Below are positions 2,879 to 20,151 of a DNA stretch of 24,000 nucleotides, piece after piece (the stretch's first letter is position 1; each line of letters starts with the position of its first letter). The stretch comes from Collinsella sp. An307. Its GTDB lineage: Bacteria; Actinomycetota; Coriobacteriia; Coriobacteriales; Coriobacteriaceae. The DNA lies in assembly GCF_002161805.1 (NCBI RefSeq), contig NZ_NFIP01000003.1, positions 22,341 through 46,340 of the forward strand, read 5' to 3'. A program made the translations under genes and the position numbers. The notes beneath the pieces were generated by a model. That model did no database searches and had not been told where the DNA came from. It saw nothing but the letters and a program-made list of their open reading frames with translations.

Positions 2879-2968
2879 AGGAAAGACGTTACGAAACCTT
2901 GTACATCCACCTTGTACACTCATAACTATACCTGTATTCTTGCAGATATATTGCTATCTGAGTATATC

Positions 2969-3057
2969 GAGTGGGAATAGAACAGACGTTCGATAAAACA
3001 ATATAGTATCAGATAGCGGGCACGGTTTCAATCGAATCCGTGCCCGCTGCTGTATGT
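2969..3057. repeat. Repeat copy A: GAAC-N4-GTTC palindrome plus conserved-loop hairpin
   Basis: Gapless 89-nt alignment to 5849-5937, 69/89 identical (hand count). GAACAGACGTTC lies at 2980-2991. The hairpin is GCGGGCACGG 3016-3025 paired with CCGTGCCCGC 3038-3047, with loop TTTCAATCGAAT. Confidence 0.75.
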
Positions 3058-3134
3058 GTGTCCTAGCACGCCCAATATGCGCCGTAAAAGCCGTCCTCTT
3101 CAACGTCAAAGTGAATGCGCTTCATTTTTGCCTC

Positions 3135-3965
3135 TCAAAATCTTATTTTCACGATTTGCATTTTCATCCCGTTGTCACCGACCCTTGCGAGAAACCGGAA
3201 AAAGCCGCTGACAGAAGGGTCCCTCAAATCGTTGTAACCCAGCATATAGCCGCGACTCGTGACCTGCAGACGGCTGTCCCACGTGCCGATTTCCTTGGCG
3301 GCATCCGAAACCGCAAAATATGCCCCCACATCCTTGATTTTTGCAGTCTTAAGCCATGTTTTTGCGATCATCTTTACTGCCGTCCGATTGGCAGCATCAA
3401 AGACCAGCACACCGCCGGGGAAAGCGTCCGCCATCCCCCGCACCAGTTCCCGGACCTGCCGGGTCAGAAAGTAATAGAACACCCCGGAGGCAAAGAACAC
3501 CACCCCGCCGGAGGCATCGATTTTGCTAAACCATGCGGTGTCTTTCAGGTCACAGGGGATATTTTGTTCTCGATTCCCGGCGGGCATTAGCTGCTGCCGC
3601 AAGGCAATCACATCCGGGAAGTCCAGATTGTAGATCTTGCATCTACCGTTGTCGCAGGTTCTGCCGGTGTTGTCCAGCCCACAGCCCAGATTGACCACCG
3701 CTGCATTGGGGTGGCCTTTCAGGTAATCCCGCACCTCGAAAGCAAGATCACTCTGCCGCATGGCCACCTCCAGCGCACCAAAGCGCTGCATCAGGCTGCG
3801 GGAGTTTTTCTCTGCCTCTGAAAAGTCGTAGTCAATCTGGTCGAGCAGACGAACCGCTGTTTCATCCCTGTAAAGGTTCGGGTACAGCTCCGTACACAGC
3901 TTCCGGGAATACAGCGGGAGGATCAGCGTCTCTTGCACGGTGTTTTTCTCAATTTTACATTTCAT
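3135..3965 (-). CDS. Class I SAM-dependent O-methyltransferase, TcmP/LCM-like
   Basis: Start at MKCKIEKNTVQETL, with a GAGGAAG RBS (ATG 3965-3963). The VVNLGCGLD glycine-rich SAM motif is present. Overall resemblance to polyketide-type (tetracenomycin TcmP-like) O-methyltransferases is by recollection. The 65-codon upstream extension in the ORF track was rejected. Confidence 0.85.
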   Translation of the reverse strand: MKCKIEKNTVQETLILPLYSRKLCTELYPNLYRDETAVRLLDQIDYDFSEAEKNSRSLMQRFGALEVAMRQSDLAFEVRDYLKGHPNAAVVNLGCGLDNTGRTCDNGRCKIYNLDFPDVIALRQQLMPAGNREQNIPCDLKDTAWFSKIDASGGVVFFASGVFYYFLTRQVRELVRGMADAFPGGVLVFDAANRTAVKMIAKTWLKTAKIKDVGAYFAVSDAAKEIGTWDSRLQVTSRGYMLGYNDLRDPSVSGFFRFLARVGDNGMKMQIVKIRF

Positions 3966-4081
3966 AGGTTTCTTCCTCAGTGAATAAAAACTGTCATAAT
4001 TGCCGCCAGCACAGCTGCTATGACCGTCATGCCTATCGCCATGTGCAGGATGGATGCAAAAAATGCCCGTGCTTGATGCCC

Positions 4082-4687
4082 TTACTTCCGCGCCGTGACG
4101 CAGAGCCACTTTTTCTTTTTGCGTATCTGCACCTCGTGAAAACCCGCCTGCTCCAGGCACGCCTTCAATTCAATGTCCTTGTAGATGGTCATGCCGCCGA
4201 TGATCCGCGTCCACCTCTCGTCCTTGTCCGTATCGCCATTGCTCTCGTTGCAGATAAGAATTGTCCCGCCTGGCTTCAGCGTCCGCCAGACCTCACGGAA
4301 GCATCGGGGCAAATCAGGCCAGAAATAGACGGTCTCGAAGGCCGTGGCGGCATCGAAGCAGCTATCCTCAAACGCCATATCCGCCACACTGTCTTGCAGA
4401 ACGGCGCAACGCCCCTCCTGAATTGCGGTTCGGTTGAGCTTCCTGGCCTTCTCCACGCTGACGGGCGAATAGTCGACGCCTTTGACGACGCCATGCGGGC
4501 ATTTTTCCAGCAGCCGTTTTATGTTCGCCCCGCCGCCGCAGCCGCAATCCAGCACCTTGGCGTTTGGCGCGAGTCGTAGAAATCGAAGTCCCCACCGCGC
4601 CACAGGGTCGTGGCCCAGGTTCATCATGGCAACCATAAGTTTTCCGCCGAGGCCCACGGGCTTGCGGGTGTTTTCAAAGAACGACAT
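4082..4687 (-). CDS. Class I SAM-dependent methyltransferase (Methyltransf_11/25-like)
   Basis: Start at MSFFENTRKP, with a GGAGG RBS. VLDCGCGGG is SAM-binding motif I. The start overlaps the upstream methyltransferase stop by 14 nt. Confidence 0.85.
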   Translation of the reverse strand: MSFFENTRKPVGLGGKLMVAMMNLGHDPVARWGLRFLRLAPNAKVLDCGCGGGANIKRLLEKCPHGVVKGVDYSPVSVEKARKLNRTAIQEGRCAVLQDSVADMAFEDSCFDAATAFETVYFWPDLPRCFREVWRTLKPGGTILICNESNGDTDKDERWTRIIGGMTIYKDIELKACLEQAGFHEVQIRKKKKWLCVTARK

Positions 4688-5303
4688 CTGGCCCCTCCGA
4701 TTTCGTGCATTCCGCATAGGTCAACGGGAACGAGGCCTTCAGCACCGCGCTTTTCCGCACCGCCCAGCCGTTTTGACGCAGGAAACGCAGGTATTCCTCG
4801 CTTGTCCACCTGCTGTGGAGGGGGAATCCCGCCATGCTCATGAAAAAGGCTTTTGCCTTGCCGGAAATCGAGTTTCCCGCGTGGGTGAAGGTTGGCGCGA
4901 TGAGCACGCCGTCGTCCTTCAGTACCCGCCTGATTTCTTGCAGTGCCTTTTCCGGATGCGGCACTATGTGAAGCGCGTTGGACGCGATCACCACTTCGAA
5001 GGACTTCTGTGCATAGGGCAGGCGGAACATATCTTGTACGGAAAAGTGCAGCTTTGCGGATTGATTGTCCCGCCTTGCTTCAAGGATCATCTTTGCAGAA
5101 GCGTCCGTAGCCTCGATATGCGCCGCCGCATTCACGATGCTCTTTGCGATAAGCCCCGTGCCGGTGGCAACTTCCAGTACGGTTTTTGCTTTCACCACCG
5201 GCCTGATCAGATCATACATCTTCTCATACGCCGCCCGGTCCTTTCGCATGAAGCGGTCGTACCGACCGGCATTCTTGTCCCAGAAGCCCTTGCGTTCGTG
5301 CAT
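4674..5303 (-). CDS. Class I SAM-dependent methyltransferase
   Basis: VLEVATGTG is motif I, and FEVVIASNALH is a post-I/II motif. The likely start is MHERKGFWDK (ATG 5303-5301). The tracked start at 5354 is possible but lacks a better RBS. Confidence 0.8.
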   Translation of the reverse strand: MHERKGFWDKNAGRYDRFMRKDRAAYEKMYDLIRPVVKAKTVLEVATGTGLIAKSIVNAAAHIEATDASAKMILEARRDNQSAKLHFSVQDMFRLPYAQKSFEVVIASNALHIVPHPEKALQEIRRVLKDDGVLIAPTFTHAGNSISGKAKAFFMSMAGFPLHSRWTSEEYLRFLRQNGWAVRKSAVLKASFPLTYAECTKSEGPDVVL

Positions 5304-5848
5304 GGCTATCGCCCCCAAATAGTTAGAGCCATCTAACTGTAACACACGAATCATGCAGTAAGATAAGGCTAACCTTATTTTCTTGGCTAAGACGCATCTC
5401 TTCGGTTTTCGCTTATAACGGCGCGAGTCAGATACTAGGCTGGAGCTGAAGAAGGAGCTTGGCGGACAGGTAGGTCGATACCGGTTCCCGGAACGGTGAT
5501 CCAGCCAATTACACCAGGGCTCTAGTCATGCTTGTAAACCCAATCCATGACGGGAAATAGGTCCTTTTCTCTAGCTCGACGTCTTTCGGAGCTTGACGAT
5601 TTAGACTGATGGAGGCGAGAAGTCCCCCACCGCGCCAATACCAGACGATTGCGCTATAGGCATCTCTCCGACCCTTTGAATCACCCCTTTTCACGCCACC
5701 CGCTACGAACCCCGGCGGAAATCAGGGAGTGATTAAAGGAGCGACCTGCGGTTTCGCGAATCAATTGAGTCATTCCCGAAATCGCGAATCAGCCCTTAGG
5801 CGGTACGACGCGACTCGCATCTGCAGCACCCGTACTGGATCAGTCACT

Positions 5849-5954: not shown

Positions 5955-6374
5955 TCAATGCCCGCGATGCTTCCGCTTGCGCTTCAGCTTTCGCTGCTCG
6001 AAGCGTGCCTCCGCCTCATCCGCGCGACGCTGGCTTCTTGCTTGAGCCGACTCCCGCTTCATCGCTTCCCGCTGTGCCGCGAGAGCCTGCTGTGCCTTGG
6101 TGCTCACTGCGGGCCGCTTAAGGGCCTTCGACGCCTCGCGGGCGCGCCGCTTGGGGTTCTTCGCGGGCTTGCTTGTTTCAGTGGCCTCGTCGCCGAAGAA
6201 CGCGAGCTTCGTCCATTTGTTGACAACGAATCGCAGGATCTCCTCATCGGACGGCTCCGCGCCGAAGACGATGCGGGCGACGCCGCATCTGCCGCCCTCG
6301 ACGTGCTCCGCCAGCCCGACCCAGAATTGGCCGTCGTGATATACGGTCAGGGTGGACGACACGCTGATCTGCAT
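5955..6374 (-). CDS. yjdF: YjdF/DUF2992 family protein
   Basis: Start at MQISVSSTLTVYHDGQFWVGLAEHV, with an AAGGAGG RBS (ATG 6374-6372). The TVYHDGQFWVG N-terminus and the lysine/arginine-rich C-terminal tail are characteristic of the DUF2992 (B. subtilis YjdF) family. Confidence 0.8.
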   Translation of the reverse strand: MQISVSSTLTVYHDGQFWVGLAEHVEGGRCGVARIVFGAEPSDEEILRFVVNKWTKLAFFGDEATETSKPAKNPKRRAREASKALKRPAVSTKAQQALAAQREAMKRESAQARSQRRADEAEARFEQRKLKRKRKHRGH

Positions 6375-6507
6375 GGCTGGTTCCTCCTTTATGTAGATGA
6401 CCATGCAGAGAAGGGACAACCAAGGAGGCAGGTTACTGATGCGGACTCCCGCACGCCCACGACTACCCGACGGGGACTGTGTTTTCATCTTTGGTGCCCG
6501 CATTGTA
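6375..6507 (-). promoter_or_regulatory. Promoter (TACAAT) and structured 5' leader of the yjdF-like gene; candidate yjdF-motif riboswitch
   Basis: On the minus strand there is a TACAAT -10 box (6507-6502). About 120 nt of leader follows. It contains CCUCCUU (6428-6422), which is exactly complementary to the SD AAGGAGG (6389-6383). The yjdF RNA motif is known to precede yjdF genes. I did not verify the consensus. Confidence 0.4.
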
Positions 6508-6606
6508 GCACGCGCGAATGTGCGCCGGCAGCGCTGCTGACATGGCGCGACCGGGACTCGCTTCTCGACGCATTCTTGAACATATTGCCTCCCCGGTTAC
6601 GAAACT

Positions 6607-6855
6607 TTAAAAAAATTCGAGTTTCGACACCGAGGAGGACCGAATGATGGCTTGGGTAGACCGCAATACGTAGGAAGTTTCGCCATCGTCTATGCTGAAC
6701 ACGAGGTCGTCTCCCTCCAATCCGATCAGGCTGACCGAGCAATCGGCACCCGGATCGACATTCCCCTGCACATGAACCCGCTTATGCGCGCGAACGAGGG
6801 CTACAAGGGCATGACCGCGCAGGAAGCGTTTGGGGTAGCGAACGGGGCCGAGCAT
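6607..6855 (-). CDS. Hypothetical protein (82 aa)
   Basis: ORF with GC-rich third positions that fits the local strand organisation. The RBS is weak, in-frame stops lie immediately upstream, and no domain was recognised. Confidence 0.35.
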   Translation of the reverse strand: MLGPVRYPKRFLRGHALVALVRAHKRVHVQGNVDPGADCSVSLIGLEGDDLVFSIDDGETSYVLRSTQAIIRSSSVSKLEFF

Positions 6856-6954
6856 CGCCCTGCGCCGGCCTTGTCATCAGGTCCTCGCACTGGGCGGTAA
6901 TCCGAGGAACGGGAGTAAGGATTTGCCCAGCATCGATAATGCTCAGCTACACCC

Positions 6955-7434
6955 TTATTCCGTCTCCCTGCTCTTGCGGTATTCCGCGAGCCTGTCGTTC
7001 AATTCGCGGGTCTCGCGGCTCAGCTTGGCGTTGAAAACAAGAGTGAGGACCGCCAGGATGGTGAGATAGACAACCGTGAAGGTAATCCACGCCCCGGGGT
7101 TGTTCACGGGAATCCAAGCAAAGATAAACGCCAATGCGCAGAGGGCTGCGTAGAGGCAAACGCCGAACAGCACCAGGCGCGTGGGATACGCCATCCGTCT
7201 GATCACCGCGGGCGTGAAGAACACGAGCTGCAGCGCGGGGGCGGCGATGCACGCGGCGAGAATCGACCAGCAATAGTAAATGCCCTGCTTGGCGGTGTCA
7301 TCAGCGAAACAAGTCCCTAATGCCAAGAAGGCTATCATGGCAACAGTGAAGCCGATACAGATACTTTTCACGAGTTGTCCGAGGTTTTCCACGGGCGTCT
7401 TTTTATCGGTGTCGATAATGTTCCTGTTAATCAT
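6955..7434 (-). CDS. DUF3021-like integral membrane protein
   Basis: About four hydrophobic helices. A GGAAGGAAG RBS is present. The gene starts 25 nt downstream of the LytTR gene. The LytTR + DUF3021 pairing is a recurrent conserved neighbourhood. Confidence 0.75.
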   Translation of the reverse strand: MINRNIIDTDKKTPVENLGQLVKSICIGFTVAMIAFLALGTCFADDTAKQGIYYCWSILAACIAAPALQLVFFTPAVIRRMAYPTRLVLFGVCLYAALCALAFIFAWIPVNNPGAWITFTVVYLTILAVLTLVFNAKLSRETRELNDRLAEYRKSRETE

Positions 7435-7459
7435 TTCAGTCTTCCTTCCTTCGTTTCGA

Positions 7460-7900
7460 CTACTTCAGACCGAGCTTCGATTTGACGTCGGGCGCATACT
7501 GGCGCGAGATAACGACCTGCTCACCGTTTTCCAAGGTGGCGATGATCCTGCCGTTGACGTCGGGCTTGAGGGCGGTGATCGCGCGGAAGTTGACGATGCA
7601 ACCTTTCGCGATGCGCAGGAAGTCACAGTCCGCCAGGCGCTCCTCCATCTCGTAAAGGCGCAGGCTCGTCTCGAGAACCGTGTCGGCCGTATAAATGAAC
7701 GTGTGCTTGTCGACCGACTCGATGAACAGGACGTCTTCTGCGCTCAGCACGCGCGTGCAGCCGTCGGCCGTGCCCGTCACTTTTCTGTCAAGCATGCGCA
7801 GCCGAGCCGCTATATCAAGCACGCGGCGATCGGCCCTTACGCAGACGATCGTGACTTCTATATCTTGAGCTGCTTCTTGTTCTTCGATCGTGATCTTCAT
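7460..7900 (-). CDS. LytTR-family DNA-binding protein (no receiver domain)
   Basis: The C-terminal region ...DVLFIESVDKHTFIYTADTVLETSLRLYEMEERL...FLRIAKGCIVNFRAITALK matches the LytTR domain pattern. A GGGAG RBS is present. Confidence 0.85.
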   Translation of the reverse strand: MKITIEEQEAAQDIEVTIVCVRADRRVLDIAARLRMLDRKVTGTADGCTRVLSAEDVLFIESVDKHTFIYTADTVLETSLRLYEMEERLADCDFLRIAKGCIVNFRAITALKPDVNGRIIATLENGEQVVISRQYAPDVKSKLGLK

Positions 7901-8192
7901 GCGTCTCCCTTCGGACCGCTCTCATGCTAGCTGACGAAGATAGCTGAACCTTCGGCGTTCAACCAAGCTGCGCTGTCGAGGAACCAAGATGCAGACTGGG
8001 CGAGCTGAACAGCATAAGAGACTGCAGCCGCGCATCCTCAGATCGAGCTCGAAACAGCAGTCCTTGCCGCTCATGAACACCGGCGCATGAAACGCCATGC
8101 TCAAGAGCGCTTAGCTTGAAACCCCCTCGCATGCAGCTATCGAATCTGGGATGCTGCCCGATTGGTCGTGCACGACGACGAGCGTACAATAG

Positions 8193-8408
8193 GTGGAAAC
8201 CAACAAGAACCTGCCCTCCATGCCAACTCCGTCACCTGACGTGATGGGCGATCTGATTGCTCTTCTGGATTGCCTTGAGAAGAACGCTGACGGAATCACT
8301 GAGCAGGACTCCCAGGAGACTGCATTTCTTCATGTTGTTCCTATTGGCAAACCCCGCCCCCAGTTGGAAGCCATCTTAGGCATATCAGCCTTGGAGACGG
8401 TGTTGTGA
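8193..8408 (+). CDS. Hypothetical small acidic protein (71 aa); doubtful
   Basis: GTG start 6 nt after a TACAAT box, so the mRNA would be leaderless. There is no RBS and no recognised domain. Confidence 0.25.
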   Translation: METNKNLPSMPTPSPDVMGDLIALLDCLEKNADGITEQDSQETAFLHVVPIGKPRPQLEAILGISALETVL

Positions 8409-8649
8409 CTCATTATTAGCCAGTCTTCGCTCGACGGAATCGGAGTTTGCGTCAACGCTGAGTTCGGGAGCGCATTGAGGTCATTCGCATTTCCTCATGC
8501 ATTTGAAAGTGGAACCGTTGAACTCTTGGGTGAATAAGCCGCCTGCGACGATTCTTTCGGTCATCGCTCTTGCACATCCCTTCTGGTCTGCGGGAACGTA
8601 AGACGGTACAGCCACTGGCTACGATTCACTTCGCTAAGAGGGAGGCCGA

Positions 8650-10724: not shown

Positions 10725-11010
10725 ATAGCGCGCCCGGCGCCAGCCCGGGCGGGGCGAGCGGCAGCGACGAGCGCGCCTCGCGGACCCGGTCCTCGACCTC
10801 GCGCGGCGTGGACCTCGCGAGCCTGCGCGGGCGGCTACTGCGGTCGGACATGGGCTCTCCGGACCTGCTGCGGCGCAGCCACTTGCTCGCCGTCTGGCGG
10901 TTGACGCCCATCTGACGCGCGGTCTCGGCGACGCCGAGGCCGGACTCTATGCGCGAGACGAGCGTCTCGCGTCCCCTCGGGGTGAGCCTTGCGTTAGGAT
11001 GTTGCTCCAT
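10725..11010 (-). pseudogene. IS481-family transposase, N-terminal HTH fragment only
   Basis: MEQHPNARLTPRGRETLVSRIESGLGVAETARQMGVNRQTASKWLRR...DRSSRPRR is the characteristic IS481-type N-terminus. No DDE catalytic domain follows. The long tracked ORF (10318-11046) continues as a shadow of the PadR operon. Confidence 0.65.
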
Positions 11011-11387: not shown

Positions 11388-11930
11388 GTGGAGAAAGGTC
11401 AAGAGAACCCACCACAAGACCAGGCGCTTGCCCATAGAGTCAGGTGGGCTGACCTCGACAGCGTATTCGAGCACATGGGCGACAATACTAGCGTTGGAGA
11501 GGCAAGTAACGGCATCCACCTCATAAATGACCGGGAGCACGTCGCCGTGCGCCAGGACCACGAGGTTCGCATTCCCAATGAATACCTGCAGGAATCATAC
11601 GTCGGACAGCGCGACAGCGACCTGAGAAAAGCAAGGGAGATGCTCCTTCAGGCCAAGCAGGAACGCCCTTCCTACAAACCTGACATCCTTTTAGGTCTTG
11701 CGACAACGTTCCTGGGCTGGTTTCTCGGGGGTTTGTCGTCATCTGTCAATCTCGCATCTTTGCCCGGTATCTTGATGCTCTGCGTAGCACCGTGTGGCGC
11801 AGTAGGACTCTTTGTCGCTTTTATCTTTATCCGAAAAGAAGAGAAGCAGGGCAAATCTGATCTGGCCGAGCGCGTCCTAGAACACCTGGCGGATCCCGAT
11901 GACAAGGAGACCAAGACCGATGAACATTAA
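11388..11930 (+). CDS. Two-TM membrane protein with a ~95-aa cytoplasmic N-domain, function unknown
   Basis: GTG start 5 nt after AAGGAG. Two hydrophobic helices are present (ILLGLATTFLGWFLGGLSS and LPGILMLCVAPCGAVGLFVAFIFI). The tail is acidic. The stop overlaps the downstream ATG. Confidence 0.7.
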   Translation: MEKGQENPPQDQALAHRVRWADLDSVFEHMGDNTSVGEASNGIHLINDREHVAVRQDHEVRIPNEYLQESYVGQRDSDLRKAREMLLQAKQERPSYKPDILLGLATTFLGWFLGGLSSSVNLASLPGILMLCVAPCGAVGLFVAFIFIRKEEKQGKSDLAERVLEHLADPDDKETKTDEH

Positions 11931-12684
11931 TGATACGAGCACACAGCTGCTCTTTACCACGGTCCCTATCGTGGGCATTACTACCGAAGGCACGGGCGTC
12001 TCGGGTACAGGATTCTTCTTTTCCTATGACCTTGAAGACGGGCGAAACGTGCCCCTGCTCATTACCAATCACCATGTCCTCAAGGATGTGATTCAGGGTC
12101 GCTTCGTCATCAATCTGGCCGAAGGTGACGCCCCGTCACGCGAGACCATCAGCGTGAACTTCGACAAGTCATTCATCGAGGGGAAGAAGCTCGGAGAGCT
12201 CGACTTGGTTGCGATGCCGGTGGCCCCTGTTCTCAGCATGCTTGAAGAAAACGGGAAGAGGCCCTTCTACCGATCCATCGACTCTGGACTCATCCCGAAG
12301 AAGAGTGTGCTGGACAATTTGGCGGCGCTCGAGCAAATCACCTTTATCGGATACCCCAGCGGGCTCTACGACGACTACAACAAGACCCCCCTCATCAGGC
12401 AAGGCTGGACTTCCACGCCCGCTTGGAACGACTACAAGGGTAAGCGCGAGTTCCTCGTTGACGCATCTGTATTCGAGGGCTCCAGCGGCAGTCCCGCCTT
12501 CATTCTCAACCAGGGCAGCTATCCCACGACCGACGGAATTGCCATCGGCTCCAGGCTGCTGTTCATGGGCGTAATCACTCAAACGATTACGAAGGAGAAG
12601 AGTGAGCACCTCGATTTAGGTACAGTCATCAGAAGCGACGCGATGCTCGTCAAGCTCAAACCTTTCGTGGAAGGTCTGCTGTAG
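11920..12684 (+). CDS. Cytoplasmic trypsin/chymotrypsin-fold serine protease (Trypsin_2-like)
   Basis: Catalytic triad candidates are His in LLITNHHVL, Asp in GELDLVAM, and Ser in FEGSSGSPAF (Ser codon 12484-12486). There is no signal peptide, TM segment or PDZ domain. ATG 11920 overlaps the upstream gene end; an alternative start is at 11899. Confidence 0.85.
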   Translation: MNINDTSTQLLFTTVPIVGITTEGTGVSGTGFFFSYDLEDGRNVPLLITNHHVLKDVIQGRFVINLAEGDAPSRETISVNFDKSFIEGKKLGELDLVAMPVAPVLSMLEENGKRPFYRSIDSGLIPKKSVLDNLAALEQITFIGYPSGLYDDYNKTPLIRQGWTSTPAWNDYKGKREFLVDASVFEGSSGSPAFILNQGSYPTTDGIAIGSRLLFMGVITQTITKEKSEHLDLGTVIRSDAMLVKLKPFVEGLL

Positions 12685-13007: not shown

Positions 13008-13478
13008 ATGGCCCAGAAGGCCTACAGCCTGTCGCACGCGAAGTGGATGTGCAGGCACCACGTCGTGTTCACGCCGAAGCGTAGGCGCAAAGTCGTCTAC
13101 AACCAAGTGAGGGCCGACCTTGGGGAGATCTTCAGGAAGCTCTGCCGGTACAAGGGGATGGAGATCATCGAGGGGCACCTGATGCCCGACCACGTCCATA
13201 TGCTGCTGGCGATACCGCCGAAGTACAGCGTGTCCAGCGTGATGGGCTGCCTGAAGGGGAAGAGCTCGCTGATGATATTCGACAGGCACGCGAACATGAG
13301 GTACAAGTTCGGCAACAGGAAGTTCTGGGCCGAGGGCTACTACGTGTCCACCGTCGGCCTGAACGAGGCGACGATCGCGAAGTACATCCGGGAGCAGGAG
13401 AAGGCCGACATCGCGCTCGACCGGCTGAGCGTCAAGGAGTACGAGGACCCCTTCGATAGGGGGCCGAAGCGGAAATAG
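13008..13478 (+). CDS. tnpA: IS200/IS605 family Y1 (HUH) transposase TnpA
   Basis: HHVVFTPKRRRKV, the HUH motif in PDHVHMLL, and the catalytic Tyr region EGYYVSTVG match the family. The length (156 aa) is typical. Confidence 0.9.
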   Translation: MAQKAYSLSHAKWMCRHHVVFTPKRRRKVVYNQVRADLGEIFRKLCRYKGMEIIEGHLMPDHVHMLLAIPPKYSVSSVMGCLKGKSSLMIFDRHANMRYKFGNRKFWAEGYYVSTVGLNEATIAKYIREQEKADIALDRLSVKEYEDPFDRGPKRK

Positions 13479-13586
13479 CGCCGGTTCGACCGGCCCGTCA
13501 CGGGTCAATCTGCATGCGGCCCGAACCCCGTGAGGGCCGGCGCCTTTAGACGCGTGCCGGCAACCCAAGGGTTATACCCTAAGAGC

Positions 13587-13613
13587 AAACCACCCCTTTT
13601 AGGGGTGGTTTTG
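13587..13613 (+). terminator. Terminator hairpin at the IS200 right end
   Basis: AAACCACCCC pairs with GGGGTGGTTT around a T-rich loop and runs into TTTT. Confidence 0.65.
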
Positions 13614-13637
13614 ATTATCTGCCCCGATAAGGAGCCC

Positions 13638-13700
13638 CTGGCGAGAGAGCTCAGCATATTCGTGGACGAGAGCGGCGACCGAGGCGGCAAGGCGCGCTAC
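13638..13700 (+). pseudogene. DUF3800-like gene start (about 20 codons only)
   Basis: An AAGGAG is followed by ...ELSIFVDESGDRGGKARY. The (I/F)xDESGD motif is the hallmark N-terminus of DUF3800 proteins. The frame then degenerates. Confidence 0.4.
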
Positions 13701-13708
13701 AATATAAG

Positions 13709-14099
13709 GAGCTGGACGAAGACGAGAAGTCGTTCGAGAAGCTCGGCATTACATTCGAGGAGAAGGCCTTCTGCGACATCCTCGTGAAGGTGCGCAACGA
13801 GCATGGCTTTCCCTACGAGGAGGAGAAGTACCTTGTTCTCGCCAAGGCTATCAAGGAACCCGTCGACGACAAGGCTCAATACGCTGACTGGTCAACGCGT
13901 GATAACATTATAAAACCAGCTCAACATGGACCTTACCGTTCTGCTTTATAAGAACGGTTATCCGCAGGAGCGGGACGAAGAGGTATCTGAGAAGGTCCTG
14001 GAACAAACTGAAAACCTCAAGGCAGAATCGAACTGCAGCTTCGAAGCGATGAAATGGTCAAAACAGGCAACATCTGATTTGCAACGTCGAACAGCATAG
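13709..14099 (+). pseudogene. hsdR: Type I restriction enzyme R subunit (HsdR) C-terminal fragment, frameshifted
   Basis: ELDEDEKSFEKLGITFEEKAFCDILVKVRNEHGF...LAKAIKEPVDDKAQYADWSTRDNI, then after a +1 shift near the A-run at 13912-13915, QLNMDLTVLLYKNGYPQERDEEVSEKVLEQTENL. This matches the HsdR C-terminal (DUF3387-type) pattern ...AFYD.L...DW..R......L..L..L.K.GYPP......V..Q.E. There is no helicase or nuclease part. Confidence 0.6.
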
Positions 14100-14113
14100 C
14101 TAAGGACTATCAA

Positions 14114-16654
14114 ATGGTTGATTTTAAAAAGATGGCAGCATCGCAGAACCCTACGCTGCGCATAAAGCCTGATGAGATTTTCGATAGGCTGCCGAAACCC
14201 CAATCCTTTGATGATTTACATAGCAGCCAGGCTGAGGTACTTGATGCATGGTTTGCTAACAGAAAAACGAAAGACACCGTTATCAAGCTTAATACGGGAG
14301 GCGGCAAAACCCTTATAGGCCTGCTGATTGCCCTCTCTAGTGCACGAGAGCTAAAACGTGGAGCATTGTACCTTGTCGACAACAAACAGCTTGTCCATCA
14401 AGTGTGCGAACAAGCAAGGACACTTGGAATACCCGCTTCCGAATATAACGGAAGGGGATCGCTTACTGCGGATTTCAGAAATGGCTCAACGATTCTCGTT
14501 GCCCATTATCAAGCCCTCTTTAACGGCAAGTCCTCCTTCGGCTTGGAAGGAGGACCCGAAGCCGAGGAAGTTTCAGTAATCATCATAGATGATGCACACT
14601 CTTCCTTTGACTCGGTTCGAAGCGCATTCACGGTGGAGATAAATGCATCGGATGCGCCTGGCTTATATCAAGAAGTTGCGACGCTCTTTCGCTCAAGCTT
14701 TGATGATATCGATAAAGTGTCAACTTTCGACGATTTCGTTTCTGGGACTCGCACAGCTGGCGAAGAGGTGCTGGAGGTCCCATTCTGGGCGTGGGAAAAG
14801 CATCGACAGAAGGTCGCCCGAAGCATTTCTGATTTCGCAGCATCAAATAAAAAAGGCACGCTTACGGCAAACTCTATAAGCTTTGGCTGGGATCTCATCA
14901 AAGACGATCTCAAGTACTGTCTTGCAACGCTGAGTCGTGACAGATTCTCAATTACTCCAATTCTTCCCCTTGTGGAGAAGTTTCCGACATTCGAAGAAGC
15001 ACCTAGAAGAGTGTACATGTCTGCAACGTTTGCTGACGAAAGTGCAATCGTTAGATCGTTTGGATGCAAGAAAGATGACATCAACGTCATCTCCCCCAAA
15101 ACACTTGCTGGTGTAGGGCGGAGGATGGTTCTCGAGATTGGGGCAAAAGAAGAGCTTCGAACCGCGCTCGTCGAGAAAATGATTGCCCTTGCGAAAGACA
15201 AAAAGGGCGTCGTAGTCCTCGAACCGAGCTTTGCAACTGCAGAGCAATGGGAACAATTGGGAATCCCCACTGTAAAAGGAAGCGAGGTTGTTCAGGCTGT
15301 AAACGCCCTGAAGGTAAGTAAGCTGGACACACCAATTGTATTTGCAAATCGATACAACGGTATTGACTTGCCAGGCGATGCATGCCGTATGCTTGTCGTC
15401 TCAGGCATCCCCAAGGGGATGTCCGATCACCATAAATTGATGTCGAAAATCCTAGTCCATAGCAAAGTCTATGCCCGCTCAATCGCCCAAAACATTGAGC
15501 AAGCAATGGGCAGAGGTACAAGGGGTTCGGGTGATTACTGTGTCGTTGCTTTGATTGGATTCGATCTTTGCGAGTGGGTTAATGACAACCGCCATGCTGT
15601 GTTCTTGACCCCTACAACAAGAGCCCAAATCGAATGCGGGCAAGGCATTATGAACGAAGTAAAGTCAGCAGAAGACTTCGTTGAGGTTATCGATCAGGGA
15701 GTCAATGACGACCCCGATTTTGCAGCCTATTTGTCAAGCTATGTGGCAGATAAGGTCAACGATTTTGAATTTGTTGACGACAGCATGCTCGAAGATTTTG
15801 CTCTCTGTGAAAGAAAAGCGCTAAACGAATGGCGCAAAGGCAGGAGTGGTCGAGCTGTCGAGCTCCTAAAACAATTTACGAATAGTGAAAATATAGACAA
15901 TTCAGTAAAGGGACTTGTCCTCCGCCTGGCAGCTCAAATTGCCTATTCGGATGACGATGTAGAGACTTCCAAAGAGCTACAGACTCGCGCAAACGGGCTC
16001 AACCGTTCACTTGCTAAGCCCATGTTCTCTAGCTCAGGCTCTGGCGTTAGCTTGCAAGCAAGAAAGATAATTGAATTCATTTCGCACCAAACTCGAAAAA
16101 GCAGCGATGTGTCGACGAAATTCGACACAGACTTGAAATCCTTATCGGAGCAATGCGATTCAAGAGAATTCGAATCAAAACTCGAGCTGCTGGGGAAATA
16201 CCTTGGTGCCAGCTCGAAACGTTACGACGATAACGGTGACGGACCCGACGTTGCCTGGGTTTTTGAAGAAGAGGATATTGCTTTTGCCTTTGAAGCAAAA
16301 AACGAAAAACTTTCGGATAATCCGCTCACGAAACAAGAGCATGGACAGCTTCAGGTCGCAAAAGAGTGGTTACGAGCTCAGTATCCAAAAATGAAATGTT
16401 TTGCAATATCTGTTCATCCAAATAATTTGGCATACAAGAATGCAAGTGCAGAATCAGCATTAGTGCTTACGCTTAATAAGCTTAACGGACTTGTAAAATC
16501 GATTGGTCAATTGATTGCGATCCTAAGTCATGGAACGCTTAATGAGAGAGGTCGATTGGCGGAATGCGAGATGCTAATCGACCAGCACAACCTTCGCCCC
16601 GACCAGATCCTTGATACCAGGGTTGAAACATTCATAGCTAAGGAACAAGGGTAG
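14114..16654 (+). CDS. SF2 DEAH-type (DinG/XPD-like) helicase fused to a C-terminal PD-(D/E)xK-like nuclease domain
   Basis: Helicase motifs seen: Q-like HSSQAEVL; I, LNTGGGKT; Ia, LYLVDNKQLVHQV; II, IIIDDAHS; III, YMSATF; Helicase_C_2-like ANRYNGIDLPGDACRMLVVSGIP; VI, QAMGRGTRGSGDYCVV. The C-terminal ~160 aa carry GPDVAWVFEEEDIAFAFEAKNEK (Asp 16247-16249; E-A-K 16292-16300). An AAGGA RBS is present. The gene is AT-rich relative to its flanks. Confidence 0.85.
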   Translation: MVDFKKMAASQNPTLRIKPDEIFDRLPKPQSFDDLHSSQAEVLDAWFANRKTKDTVIKLNTGGGKTLIGLLIALSSARELKRGALYLVDNKQLVHQVCEQARTLGIPASEYNGRGSLTADFRNGSTILVAHYQALFNGKSSFGLEGGPEAEEVSVIIIDDAHSSFDSVRSAFTVEINASDAPGLYQEVATLFRSSFDDIDKVSTFDDFVSGTRTAGEEVLEVPFWAWEKHRQKVARSISDFAASNKKGTLTANSISFGWDLIKDDLKYCLATLSRDRFSITPILPLVEKFPTFEEAPRRVYMSATFADESAIVRSFGCKKDDINVISPKTLAGVGRRMVLEIGAKEELRTALVEKMIALAKDKKGVVVLEPSFATAEQWEQLGIPTVKGSEVVQAVNALKVSKLDTPIVFANRYNGIDLPGDACRMLVVSGIPKGMSDHHKLMSKILVHSKVYARSIAQNIEQAMGRGTRGSGDYCVVALIGFDLCEWVNDNRHAVFLTPTTRAQIECGQGIMNEVKSAEDFVEVIDQGVNDDPDFAAYLSSYVADKVNDFEFVDDSMLEDFALCERKALNEWRKGRSGRAVELLKQFTNSENIDNSVKGLVLRLAAQIAYSDDDVETSKELQTRANGLNRSLAKPMFSSSGSGVSLQARKIIEFISHQTRKSSDVSTKFDTDLKSLSEQCDSREFESKLELLGKYLGASSKRYDDNGDGPDVAWVFEEEDIAFAFEAKNEKLSDNPLTKQEHGQLQVAKEWLRAQYPKMKCFAISVHPNNLAYKNASAESALVLTLNKLNGLVKSIGQLIAILSHGTLNERGRLAECEMLIDQHNLRPDQILDTRVETFIAKEQG

Positions 16655-16885
16655 TCTCGTTGTGGATTCCTCGCCAAAACCGAGCGTATTAAAGCGCTTG
16701 AGATGTTTTTCAATCTTGGTCATTACAACGGCTGATCTTAGTTTTCAGAAGAGACAACTGCTGGATAACGGATACCCAGAAGTTTTGGCGGCATCCATCC
16801 ATGCCAACATCCCCGAGTTCATGCAGGAGGGGAGGACCTTCTAGGTGAGATGGAGATCGGCTGTTGACGAGCGGCGCAATAGATG

Positions 16886-16917
16886 GCGGTGTCGGTTTCA
16901 GGCGGAACCGGCACCGC
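16886..16917. repeat. Third copy of the yjdF-downstream hairpin
   Basis: A 12-bp stem (GCGGTGTCGGTT/AACCGGCACCGC, with one G-T pair) whose 5' loop junction, GGTTTCA, matches copies A and B. It lies 30 nt from the yjdF remnant stop; copy B lies 27 nt from its yjdF stop. TTTT follows on the + strand. Confidence 0.5.
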
Positions 16918-16946
16918 TTTTGTGTGAGGCTTGCTGCAAATGGCGA

Positions 16947-16985
16947 TCAGTGCCCGCGATGCTTCTGCTTGCGCTCCGGTACCGT
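16947..16985 (-). pseudogene. Last ~10 codons of a second yjdF/DUF2992 gene
   Basis: ...ERKQKHRGH* (stop 16949-16947). The nucleotide string TGCCCGCGATGCTTCTGCTTGCGCT is nearly identical to 5959-5983 at the 3' end of the intact yjdF. The rest of the gene is replaced by the IS256-family end. Confidence 0.55.
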
Positions 16986-17037
16986 CAAGATCCTTGCGCA
17001 CTTTCCGACAGCCTAACTGACCCGCCTTCCGGTACGG

Positions 17038-17931
17038 CTACTCATCCAGCAGAGTCACGTCCAGGTAGCGCCGGGAGCCCCAGGAGCTCTCCGCAACGTA
17101 CTTGAGCCTCGCGGTCACGAGCATGAGGGCCGACCTGCCGTCGGGGAAGGTGCCGACCACGCGCGTGCGTCTGCGAATCTCGCGGTTGAGGCGCTCGATG
17201 GCGTTGTTGGTCCTGATCCTCCGCCAGTGCTCGCGGGGGAACCTGGCGTACGTCAGCGTCTCGGCGCAGCCGTCCCTGACGACCATGGCGGCCTCCCTGA
17301 GCTTGGACTTCTCGAGTTCGGATGCAACCTCGAGGGCCTTGGCCTCGGCGGCCTCGGGCGACTCCATCGCGTGGATCGCCTTCAGCATGGCGGCGACCCT
17401 CGGGCGCCTGGTCTTCGGCACCCTCGCCAGAACGTTTCTGTAGAAGTGGACCGTGCAGCGCTGGTAGGCGGCCTCCGGGAAGACCTCGGCGATCGACCCC
17501 ACCATGCCGGCGGCCTTGTCGCCCGTGAACATGCGAACCCCGCGCAGGCCGCGCGACCTCAGCCGGGAGAGGAACTCCCGCCAGCACTCCGAGGACTCCG
17601 TGAAGCCCTCGGCCGCGCCTATGACCTCGCGGTAGCCGTCGTCGTTGACACCTATCGCCACCATCACGGCCACGTTCTCGTAGGAGCCTCCCCAGCTGCG
17701 CTTGAGGTAGATTCCGTCCACGTAGACGTAGGGGTACGCCCGCTCGAGGGGCCTGTTCCTCCACGCCTCCACGGCCTCGAACGCCCTCTCGTTGAGGTTG
17801 GAGACGGTCGCCGCGGACACCGACGACCCCCACAGGATCTCGCTCACGTCCTCAATCCTGCGCGTCGAGACGCCGGCGAGGTACATCTCTATCATGGCCT
17901 CCTCGACGCTGGTCTCCCGGCGCCGGTAACG
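17038..17931 (-). pseudogene. IS256-family (Mutator-type) transposase, C-terminal ~3/4, disrupted
   Basis: ...YRRRETSVEEAMIEMYLAGVSTRRIEDV...YVYVDGIYLKRSWGG...VAIGVNDDGYREVIG...CTVHFYRNVL...TNNAIERLNREIRRRTRVVGTFPD are hallmark IS256 transposase blocks. The frame is contiguous with 19879-20151 once the IS21 element is removed. Confidence 0.85.
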
Positions 17932-18126: not shown

Positions 18127-19689
18127 CTACACCTCCCCGTAGAAGTCCGCGCCGCGCACGTAGCCGGCCTCGTCGTCGCCGGGGCCGCCGTCGTCGCCGG
18201 GCCGCGCCCCGGCTGCCAGGTCCTGGCCGGTCTCCAGTATCGGCTTCAGGTGCTTGTACCTGGGAGACGGCCTGCCCGAGGCCAGCGCCATCTGGCAGGC
18301 GCGCTCGAGCCTGGGCCTGGTGTAGCGGTGCTCGAGCCTGAGCGCCGCGAGGGCCGCGTTGAAGCCCTGCTCCTCGTAGTCCACTCGTTGGAAGATGCGG
18401 TCCACCACCTCCCTGCAGGACGGGCCGACGCGGTCCGCCCACCTCCTTATGCGCCCGGCGTCCCAATCGGAGTACGACCTCCCCACGGGCAGGTCGCCGG
18501 CGTGCGTCGAGTAGCGGTTCCGGGCGTAGGCCGGGAACAGCGGATGCGTGGCGCGCCGCTCGCCTCCGAGGAAGACCTCCACCGTCGAGTCCGTGACCCT
18601 CAGGTCGACCGTCCTCCCGACCGCGAGATGGCTCACGGAATAGTAGTTGCGCCTGTAGGCGACGTGGCGGTTGCGCTGGACCTTGCGACCGTAGACCCAC
18701 TCGCAGACCTCGTAGGGGACGGCGGGGAGCGGGTGGAGCAGCGGCTCCTCCTGCTCCTCGAAGACCTGTCGGCGCGTTCCCTCGCGCTTGGCGAAGGGGC
18801 GCGCGTTGTGCTCCTCCAGTCGCTCCGCCACGGCCCTCTTGAGCTCGTTGAAGTCGGTGAACACGGTGTCGCGCAGGGCCGCGATGATCTCCAGTGCGGC
18901 CTGCCAGACCTCGCTTTCCGCGCTCGGCTTGTCGCGAGGGGTCGCGACGCGTGCCGGCATCACGGCCGAGCCGTAGTGGGCCGCCATCTCCCGGTACGCG
19001 CCGTTGGGCACGACCTCGCCCTCGCGGGGATGGCTCTTGACCCCGGTCTTCAGGTTGTCGGGCACGATGCAGGGCGTCGAGCCGCCGAGGTAGGCGAACG
19101 CGTGCACGTGGCAGCGGAGCCATGTATCCTGCTTCATGTCCAGCGTCGGCTCGACGTAGGACATCCGGCTGAAGGGCAGGCAGGCCACGAACAGGTAGAC
19201 CTTGGAGACCTCGCCCGTCGCGGGATCGACGAGCCGCATCGTCGGCCCGGCCCAGTCGACCTCCATGATGCGCCCGGCCTTGTGCCCGACCCGGCTCACC
19301 ACCTGCTTTCTCACCGTGAACTCCCGGTAGCGCTTGCAGAACCGGCCGTAGGACATGAAGGGCTCGCCCTTCGACCTCGCATCGTCGCGGTACTCCTCGT
19401 GCAGCCGCTTCAGCGTGACGCCGACCCGGGCGAGCTCGCGGTGCACGCGGTCCCAGTCGGGGTCGCGGTAGACGGGCCCCTCATGCACCCTCTCGGGGAA
19501 CAGCAGCGCGTAGGCCTCCGCGTCCGACATCCCCTCGACGTCCTCCCAGGCGACGCCCCTCTCGTCGGCGGCGTGGAACGTGTCGACCACGCTCGTCTTG
19601 GAGACCGGCTGCGTCCGCGCTATCACGGTCGCCGACAGCCCCGATGCCCTGAGCCTCAGTATCTCCCTCACGGGTATCCTTCTCGCCAT
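18127..19689 (-). CDS. istA: IS21-family transposase IstA
   Basis: Start at MARRIPVREILRLRASGLSATVIARTQPVSKTSV (HTH), with an AAGGAGG RBS. The DDE core region has ...MEVDWAGPTM...VYLFVACLPFSRMSYVE...PDNLKTGV. The length (520 aa) is typical. Confidence 0.9.
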   Translation of the reverse strand: MARRIPVREILRLRASGLSATVIARTQPVSKTSVVDTFHAADERGVAWEDVEGMSDAEAYALLFPERVHEGPVYRDPDWDRVHRELARVGVTLKRLHEEYRDDARSKGEPFMSYGRFCKRYREFTVRKQVVSRVGHKAGRIMEVDWAGPTMRLVDPATGEVSKVYLFVACLPFSRMSYVEPTLDMKQDTWLRCHVHAFAYLGGSTPCIVPDNLKTGVKSHPREGEVVPNGAYREMAAHYGSAVMPARVATPRDKPSAESEVWQAALEIIAALRDTVFTDFNELKRAVAERLEEHNARPFAKREGTRRQVFEEQEEPLLHPLPAVPYEVCEWVYGRKVQRNRHVAYRRNYYSVSHLAVGRTVDLRVTDSTVEVFLGGERRATHPLFPAYARNRYSTHAGDLPVGRSYSDWDAGRIRRWADRVGPSCREVVDRIFQRVDYEEQGFNAALAALRLEHRYTRPRLERACQMALASGRPSPRYKHLKPILETGQDLAAGARPGDDGGPGDDEAGYVRGADFYGEV

Positions 19690-19878
19690 GCCCGATACCT
19701 CCTTGTCTCGCTGGAACACATGGCGCTGCGAGCGTAGCGCTGGCGCGATGCCGCGGCGCGGTGGCATCTGCGGCCGGTATCGAGGCGGAATATCGGTGGT
19801 ATCGAAAGGGAATATCTGCGTGGGCGCGAGGCGGTATCGATTCGTGCTACACCCGGTACCGAGAAGGACGATTACTCA

Positions 19879-20151
19879 GTAGCGCTCGATGATCGCCGTG
19901 GTGAAGCGCATCCCCTTGAGCTTTGGCATGCGGATCGTGACCTCGCCGGACGTCGTCGTGAGCTTGCGCTCGTAATGGCCGGCGCGGTACGCCTCGCGAT
20001 CAGCCGTCCGCTCGTAGCGCTCCGCGCCGACCAGGTCGTCGGCCTCCTCGTCCAGGAGGCCGTTGAGCATCTCCTCGACGGTCCTCCTGACGAGCTCGCG
20101 CAGGTCGGCCCTCAGCGACTCCTCGTTCAAAGATACAATGGAATCGGGCAT
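19879..20151 (-). pseudogene. IS256-family transposase, N-terminal ~90 codons, disrupted
   Basis: MPDSIVSLNEESLRADLRELVRRTVEEMLNGLLDEEADDLVGAERYERTADREAYRAGHYERKL.TTSGEVTIRMPKLKG is the canonical IS256 transposase N-terminus. The TGA stop is contributed by the first bases of the inserted IS21 element. Confidence 0.85.

Follow-up and report, generated by a model that had tools for sequence, protein, structure and literature searches.

A single-gene helicase-nuclease of Collinsella sp. An307 assigned to the Hna family of anti-phage defense proteins

Introduction

Does a helicase joined to a nuclease in one polypeptide, encoded beside a decayed restriction gene and insertion sequences (IS), belong to a known defense family, or does it represent an architecture of its own? 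The question is raised by a gene at 14114..16654 of a 24,000-nucleotide (nt) stretch of DNA from Collinsella sp. An307 (contig NZ_NFIP01000003.1, positions 22,341 to 46,340 of the forward strand), the whole of which is called the window here and to which all coordinates refer unless a locus is named. The initial annotation described the product as a stand-alone 846-amino acid (aa) ATPase of superfamily 2 (SF2), XPD/DinG-like and fused to a PD-(D/E)xK nuclease, and left two options, a member of a known family, Hna being one of those named, or a new fused architecture. The description was borne out by the open reading frame (ORF), Pfam and a structural model, and of the two options the first one stood: the protein is very probably an ordinary member of the characterized Hna anti-phage family, a single-protein abortive-infection defense enzyme.

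Hna was reportedly described in 2023 by Sather and colleagues, who are said to have found the defense phenotype also for an Escherichia coli homolog. Papers on its structure and its mechanism followed in 2025-2026.

Results

Placement in the Hna family

A phmmer search of all chains in the PDB returned one strong match (E 1.7e-85), in which residues 1-834 of the query protein are aligned with residues 1-835 of the chain. The matched chain is the 845-residue protein of entries 10UJ, 9YHN and 9YKJ, identified through Hooper et al. (2026, PMC13381803) as the Hna protein of Sinorhizobium meliloti (SMa2245; hereafter Sm Hna), and BLASTP of the query against it gave 31.2% identity over residues 1-834 (E 2.5e-94), a value that rose to 33% when the two were aligned globally. 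In PADLOC, the query scored best on PDLC04986 (PDC-S28), with 799.8 bits over profile positions 1-827 of 831, and Sm Hna, scanned as residues 1-835 rebuilt from the alignment, likewise scored best on PDLC04986, with 1012.8 bits; they have their second model, PDLC04987, in common too. Both PDC-S28 models are matched by the query over their full length (E 8.1e-241 and 8.6e-151). Because the query and Sm Hna have the same top model, we take PDC-S28 to be the PADLOC candidate name of the Hna family, to which both the query and genuine Hna belong. PDC-S28 is an unpublished candidate label, and its calls coincide with those of a differently named DefenseFinder system in a published survey (PMC11811056). 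No meaningful match was obtained in an NCBIfam scan of the query, which indicates that the NCBIfam release holds no dedicated Hna model.

The full-length protein was modeled with AlphaFold2 on a 60-sequence family alignment (mean predicted local distance difference test score, pLDDT, 88.6) and the model compared with the PDB by Foldseek. The top match was the Hna monomer 9yhn (E 1.8e-51, TM 0.66/0.68), followed by the Hna dimer chains 9ykj_A and 9ykj_B, whereas matches to XPD, DinG and CasDinG reached ~1e-14 or weaker, about 37 orders of magnitude below Hna. Family membership rests on these three independent lines, sequence, reciprocal profile and structure, and every testable feature that defines Hna, with Hooper et al. 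and the 2025 paper of Sather et al. as sources, was found in the query protein. The initial annotation had named beforehand the result that would speak against novelty, a confident profile placement in a characterized family, and this is what the searches returned, with Hna as the family. A new fused architecture was thus not upheld, given the full-length alignment with Hna, the shared PADLOC model and Hna as the top fold match.

Domain organization and catalytic residues

The protein is encoded by a single intact ORF with an ATG start and 846 codons, in which the following features were located.

14114..16654, plus strand: hna gene, 846-aa Hna-family helicase-nuclease, stop codon included (ORF list, PADLOC, PDB and Foldseek matches)
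14189..14230, plus strand: N-terminal loop and Q motif, residues 26-39, LPKPQSFDDLHSSQ (residue mapping to S. meliloti Hna)
14294..14311, plus strand: Walker A, motif I, TGGGKT, residues 61-66 (K65/T66 correspond to Sm K72/T73)
14588..14599, plus strand: Walker B, motif II, DDAH, residues 159-162 (D159/D160 correspond to Sm D162/D163)
14624..15007, plus strand: helical insertion between motifs II and III, reduced Arch-like domain, residues ~171-298 (secondary structure of the model)
15008..15613, plus strand: HEL2 RecA-like domain, residues ~299-500, with SAT, the Helicase_C_2 block and motif VI (Pfam, alignment)
15614..16153, plus strand: all-helical linker, residues ~501-680 (helices H500-H674 in the model)
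16154..16651, plus strand: NUC domain, PD-(D/E)xK fold, residues ~681-846 (model, residue mapping)
16244..16249 and 16292..16300, plus strand: predicted NUC catalytic residues, P711/D712 and E727-A-K729 respectively (mapping to Sm Hna)

Pfam assigned residues 35-168 to ResIII/DEAD and residues 408-481 to Helicase_C_2 (E 8.7e-06). All the SF2 motifs claimed in the initial annotation were located, SAT at residues 303-305, NGIDLPGD at ~415-422 and QAMGRGTRG at 463-471 in addition to Walker A and Walker B, and their key residues are invariant in the 60-sequence alignment, S303, T305, Q463, R467 and R470 included. The helical linker that had been placed ahead of the terminal domain was recovered in the model. 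The C-terminal nuclease signature was also found, with its spacing corrected from D-x13-E-A-K to D712-x14-E727-A-K729. In the NUC domain, which was modeled with confidence, a helix (683-696) is followed by strands 700-702, 713-717 and 722-728, a helix (740-756) and a further strand (761-768); D712 opens the second strand, E727 and K729 close the third, and the predicted layout of these three residues is the canonical PD-(D/E)xK geometry. Because the stretch between the two Walker motifs has C98 as its sole cysteine, the query protein would carry no Fe-S cluster.

Residues with known roles in Sm Hna were compared one by one. Hooper et al. (PMC13381803) mutated R36/Q39 (ATP site), P712/D713/E727 (nuclease metal), K729 (nuclease-dead) and T30/D31/P34 (dimer interface), and give Walker A as K72/T73 and Walker B as D162/D163. 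Sm Q39, K72/T73 and D162/D163 align with query Q39, K65/T66 and D159/D160, all of them invariant in the 60 homologs, and Sm P712/D713/E727/K729 align with query P711/D712/E727/K729. Judged from this alignment, the catalytic residues are all kept in the query.

Comparison with named systems

The query and Sm Hna (846 and 845 aa; PDB 9YHN, 9YKJ, 10UJ) are collinear over residues 1-834 and share the same order of HEL1, reduced Arch, HEL2, helical linker and PD-(D/E)xK domain, and they agree exactly in the key residues of the Q motif, of Walker A and B and of the nuclease P-D...E-x-K signature. Both are products of single genes in a mobile or plasmid-linked defense-island setting and have the same best PADLOC model. 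Neither has an Fe-S cluster, and a reduced Arch domain and a missing Fe-S cluster are reported for Hna in general (PMC13381803). The query differs in its host, a Gram-positive gut actinobacterium, and its branch is known here from sequence.

The Rad3-type SF2 proteins DinG, XPD and CasDinG resemble the query in their two RecA-like domains, the Helicase_C_2-type HEL2 and an Arch-like insertion, and they are its next-best fold matches (E ~1e-14 to 1e-10). Hna differs from them in having no Fe-S cluster and a reduced Arch domain, and in adding a linker of ~350 residues together with the C-terminal PD-(D/E)xK domain. ExoDinG carries its nuclease as an N-terminal domain of the DEDD type. Sm Hna does not unwind DNA, and ExoDinG is cited as a DinG subclass with 3'-5' exonuclease activity (Hooper et al., PMC13381803).

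Other candidates were rejected. For CasDinG of type IV CRISPR systems, the typeIV_DinG profile gave E 5.4e-15 against 8.1e-241 for PDC-S28, and no cas genes were found among the neighboring ORFs scanned against Pfam. Hachiman (HamAB), or a fused HamAB, returned no HamA or HamB match in PADLOC at E <= 1 and no Pfam DUF1837, and no adjacent partner is present; for Nhi there was no PADLOC match at E <= 1. Hachiman and Nhi are like Hna in that a helicase-like sensor governs a nuclease effector, and the SSB (single-stranded DNA-binding protein) of phages has been reported as an activator of both as well. Hachiman differs in being composed of two genes with a DUF1837 nuclease, whereas the core of the query is XPD/DinG-like and not of the HamB type.

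Family breadth and architectural variants

An HMMER search of 1.84 billion cluster representatives gave 730 clusters at E <= 1e-30, nearly all of them 820-860 residues long and matched over their full length, with scores that fall continuously to the level of Sm Hna. When 137 representatives were aligned together with the query and Sm Hna, 136 of the 137 proved to retain the Walker A KT, all 137 the Walker B DD, and 133 the nuclease D-E-K.

One homolog, P0019, shows 58% identity with the query over residues 1-644 and keeps the linker up to residue ~644, after which a C-terminal TIR_2 domain (670-784, E 4.9e-24) replaces the PD-(D/E)xK nuclease. Its gene (positions 6001-8409 of loci L034-L036) was seen on at least 10 contigs and adjoins a type III restriction-modification (RM) system, a DUF1883-TIR protein, YefM/YoeB and a Macro-domain protein, a defense island. 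To our knowledge, a TIR-for-nuclease swap on an Hna chassis has not been described. P0019 suggests that the helicase-linker module of Hna is a portable sensor with exchangeable effectors. Two further proteins depart from the common length: P0143 (831 aa) matches the query over residues 1-634 only and may carry a different C-terminal domain, and P0163 (1166 aa) has an N-terminal extension of ~326 residues.

Mobility and selection

Close alleles (98% and 89-90% identity) are found in many genomes of Collinsella and Enorma, both gut Coriobacteriaceae, and several independent genomes of Collinsella have the arrangement of the window with 97-98% identity. When the window was compared by blastn with 27 loci, the only sequence common to the hna loci of other Collinsella and Enorma contexts was a block of ~2.8 kb (14053..16843, plus strand) that holds hna and short flanks. 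The ~190 nt past the stop codon (16655-16843) are conserved with hna in all contexts at 89-98% identity; a 60-codon ORF (16662..16844) is located there, as is a hairpin of terminator-like form at 16681-16700.

The genes around this block change from lineage to lineage. Alleles of the 89% group have an AAA+/S8-protease pair upstream, and also MqsRA; in Slackia there are IS fragments and an NgoMIV-type RM system, and in Enorma AbiEi/AbiEii; another lineage has the AAA+/S8 pair downstream on the opposite strand and a type I RM system, and others have metabolic genes with IS481, or KAP NTPase/CTD12. No conserved neighbor gene was found among homologs at 89%, 59%, 58%, 51% and 46% identity. As Hna is a single-effector system (PMC13381803), no partner gene is expected, and the idea that a usual partner had been lost from the window found no support in these differing neighborhoods. 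The pair of nSTAND3/AAA ATPase and Peptidase_S8 genes lies upstream on the same strand in L002-L004 and L016 and downstream on the opposite strand in L028-L030; beside the 89% and 59% homologs it is probably a separate defense module of the same islands.

Homologs of Hna were found on 202 plasmids of PLSDB, 111 of them conjugative, with Sinorhizobium, Agrobacterium, Enterococcus and Salmonella among the hosts, and public annotation of these plasmid homologs reads "DEAD/DEAH box helicase" only. Megablast of positions 13480-17000 of the window against PLSDB gave no match, so that this region does not come from a sequenced plasmid of that set. The hna gene itself has 46.8% GC (46.3% at third codon positions), compared with 67.1% in the downstream IS256/IS21 nest and 60.5% in the upstream IS200 transposase gene, as the initial annotation had anticipated in calling it richer in AT than the flanking IS elements. 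The presence of the 2.8-kb block in unrelated contexts, the plasmid homologs and this low GC within surroundings of ~62-67% all demonstrate the mobility of hna, which has been acquired by gut Collinsella-type bacteria through horizontal transfer.

The ratio of nonsynonymous to synonymous substitution rates (dN/dS) is 0.15 when the allele of the window is compared with the 89% group; therefore, hna is maintained by selection as a functional gene. Synonymous divergence from the 89% allele of L016 is ~1.0 in HEL2 (15008-15613) and 0.16-0.32 in every other segment, which suggests intragenic recombination and a mosaic allele.

In Enorma phocaeensis (L010), the hna block is bracketed by a 106-nt direct repeat with 77% identity between its copies (7741-7846 and 10821-10926 of that locus), and past each copy stands a 24-nt motif, ACTRGAGAGAGKTTTTWRCTATTG, that ends exactly at the block junction. 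The L010 block that follows hna is 96.5% homologous to the methyltransferase region of the window (2965-5588), where it lies ~9 kb upstream of hna. This layout resembles a reshuffling of cassettes, with the same sequence recurring at the junctions. The 24-nt junction motif of L010-L012 (Enorma/Collinsella) was absent when searched for in the window.

Surroundings of hna in the window

The features around hna are the following.

11899..12684: Trypsin_2 protein, 261 aa (PADLOC single-gene candidate PDC-S45, E 2.1e-69)
13008..13478: IS200-type transposase gene, upstream of the hsdR remnant (the IS200 element lies ~500 nt upstream of hna)
13706..14099 (start approximate), plus strand: frameshifted 3' remnant of hsdR, type I restriction enzyme (PADLOC REase_I)
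14102..14106, plus strand: Shine-Dalgarno-like AAGGA, 7 nt 5' of the ATG (read from the sequence; putative role)
16681..16710, plus strand: terminator-like hairpin and T-run, 27 nt past the stop codon and within the conserved block (consensus match only)
17038..17895 and 19876..20151, minus strand: C-terminal and N-terminal parts of a split IS256-family (Transposase_mut) gene
18127..19767: transposase of an IS21-like element inside the IS256-family gene (rve and Mu-transpos_C_2)

The hsdR remnant covers positions 921-1025 of 1029 of the PADLOC REase_I profile (E 1.1e-18) and ends with a TAG at 14099, 14 nt ahead of the hna ATG, as first noted. It is no part of the defense system and travels together with hna. 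Remnants beside hna measure ~400 nt in the window, 137 nt in L010-L012 (7864-8000) and no more than 61 nt in loci with an allele of the 89% group (L016 and others, 7940-8000); since remnants of decreasing length accompany hna across loci, an ancestral adjacency of hsdR and hna in the donor, followed by stepwise deletion of hsdR, is implied.

No intact partner gene was found on either side of hna when the neighboring ORFs were scanned, in agreement with the first reading of the locus: upstream lies IS200 and downstream the nest of split IS256 and IS21. Homology common to other hna loci ends at 16843, immediately ahead of that nest. The Trypsin_2 gene, ~1.4 kb upstream of hna, is from its profile match a second, uncharacterized defense candidate. 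An ORF at 11388..11930 (180 aa), which has no Pfam match, overlaps the start of the Trypsin_2 gene, and the same pair occurs in L001, L006, L007 and L020. The defense-island setting claimed at the outset is supported by the hsdR remnant and the PDC-S45 match upstream of hna. A scan of 13500-17100 for sigma-70 promoters and terminator-like sequences returned no more matches than shuffled sequence did.

Discussion

Weighing the assignment against alternative explanations

Some observations weigh against taking the query for an ordinary Hna protein or for an active one. It is only 31-33% identical to Sm Hna, the sole biochemically characterized member, from which the phenotype and enzymology ascribed to the query branch would be carried over by analogy. 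The Sm dimer-loop residues T30/D31/P34 are Q30/S31/D34 in the query, so that a regulatory loop of the Sm type is not present, and ATP-site residue R36 is replaced by H36, a position occupied by Y, H or F, mostly Tyr, across the query branch. With a loop of another type, autoinhibition and trigger recognition may differ from those of Sm Hna. No sigma-70-like promoter was found 5' of the hna ATG in a scan of 13500-17100 with the E. coli consensus, a poor model for Actinomycetota, and the native promoter may have been lost through IS200 insertion and hsdR decay, which would leave expression of this copy putative.

The loop residues argue for a more specific alternative, namely that the query is an Hna protein of a functionally distinct branch, in which the loop mediates other regulation, with a trigger other than SSB or without a homodimer of the Sm type; we regard this as possible, though clearly not the favored explanation. 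In the query loop (LPKPQSFDDLHSSQ), K28, P29, D34 and Q39 are invariant among the 60 sequences of this branch, and the consensus reads LPKPxGINDL[Y/H]xSQ, whereas the representatives nearest Sm Hna carry LD-R-x-x-D-K-G-P-L-R-x-x-Q. These two types split the 137 representatives: Sm Hna is nearer than the query to 76 of them, and most of the rest carry LP-K-P-x-G-I-N-D-L-Y/H, with R at position Q-3 accompanying the Sm-type loop and Y, H or F the query type. The branch with the query-type loop is large and includes Firmicutes, Actinomycetota and many Proteobacteria. All the residues at the interface where Sm Hna dimerizes and SSB competes are replaced, and Hooper et al. (PMC13381803) expect orthologs to vary in the phage factor that they recognize. 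However, the loop stands at the same place beside the Q motif in an otherwise identical architecture, its strong conservation is equally expected of a homodimer interface with co-varied contacts, and a difference in trigger is proposed from sequence comparison. That a conserved loop occupies this position in both types points to a similar kind of role, but the partner surface, and hence the trigger, could differ. As the N-terminal loop departs from that of Sm Hna, what the trigger is and how exactly the protein dimerizes are the least secure parts of the proposed mechanism, and the difference lowers confidence in these regulatory details and not in family membership.

Two other explanations would deny the gene a role in defense, or deny it expression. 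That the query is a housekeeping DNA-repair helicase of the DinG/XPD type, part of the core genome, could be argued from its XPD/DinG/CasDinG-type core fold, from weak profile matches (typeIV_DinG, and XPD chains of the PDB at E ~3e-3) and from public annotations that read no further than a DEAD/DEAH box helicase. It is nevertheless highly implausible: the fold and profile matches to Hna and PDC-S28 exceed these by the margins given above, the four-cysteine Fe-S domain is absent, and the scores for the curated NCBIfam models lie far under their cut-offs (RadD 17.4 bits against 720, XPB 12.8 against 610). The patchy distribution, the carriage on plasmids, the flanking IS, RM, toxin-antitoxin and other defense genes, and a GC content ~20 points under that of the neighboring IS DNA are likewise at odds with a core-genome gene. 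A silent relic, with an intact ORF whose expression was lost when IS200 insertion and hsdR decay removed the promoter, is easier to imagine, given the truncated and frameshifted hsdR and the IS200 element upstream, the IS nest downstream and the absence of a sigma-70-like site, but we consider it improbable. The promoter scan says little for an actinobacterial host because its consensus is that of E. coli, the ORF is full-length (profile positions 1-827 of 831) with every catalytic residue intact, and a putative ribosome-binding site (AAGGA) stands at -7; moreover, the recurrence of the same arrangement in independent genomes and the dN/dS between allele groups speak for a gene in use. We therefore keep to the assignment of the query as an ordinary member of the Hna family.

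Proposed mechanism

Family membership, intact catalytic residues, fold, stand-alone organization, horizontal mobility and purifying selection are established for the query. By homology with Sm Hna, its two RecA-like domains would bind ATP and hydrolyze it slowly, acting as a regulatory and sensor module and not as an unwinding motor. In the uninfected cell, ATP binding would keep the protein autoinhibited; in Sm Hna, the autoinhibited form is a homodimer whose subunits meet through the N-terminal loop of HEL1, and the trigger is the SSB of phage 5A, which competes at that loop (PMC13381803). Upon infection, a phage factor would lift the autoinhibition, and the PD-(D/E)xK domain, presumably an ATP-gated 3'-5' exonuclease that acts on single-stranded DNA (ssDNA), would then degrade ssDNA unrestrained. 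This degradation would halt phage replication and kill or arrest the cell, that is, abortive infection. Exonuclease polarity, autoinhibition by ATP, triggering by SSB and the abortive outcome are thus expected of the query by analogy with its characterized homolog.

Significance

As a discovery the gene carries little weight, since Hna has been known since 2023 and standard defense-finding tools would call it Hna or PDC-S28. The locus documents Hna in the abundant Coriobacteriaceae of the human gut, where it moves as a 2.8-kb unit between defense islands. It also reveals that the loop with a regulatory and sensing role in the model protein does not keep its sequence throughout the family, in which there are at least two conserved types, a testable lead on trigger specificity, and that a natural swap of nuclease for TIR on the Hna chassis exists in P0019. 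If the query loop sees another phage product or regulates otherwise, the query branch would be an Hna variant in its mechanism, and the variant loop and P0019 together would show the Hna helicase module to be a portable sensor that drives interchangeable effectors.

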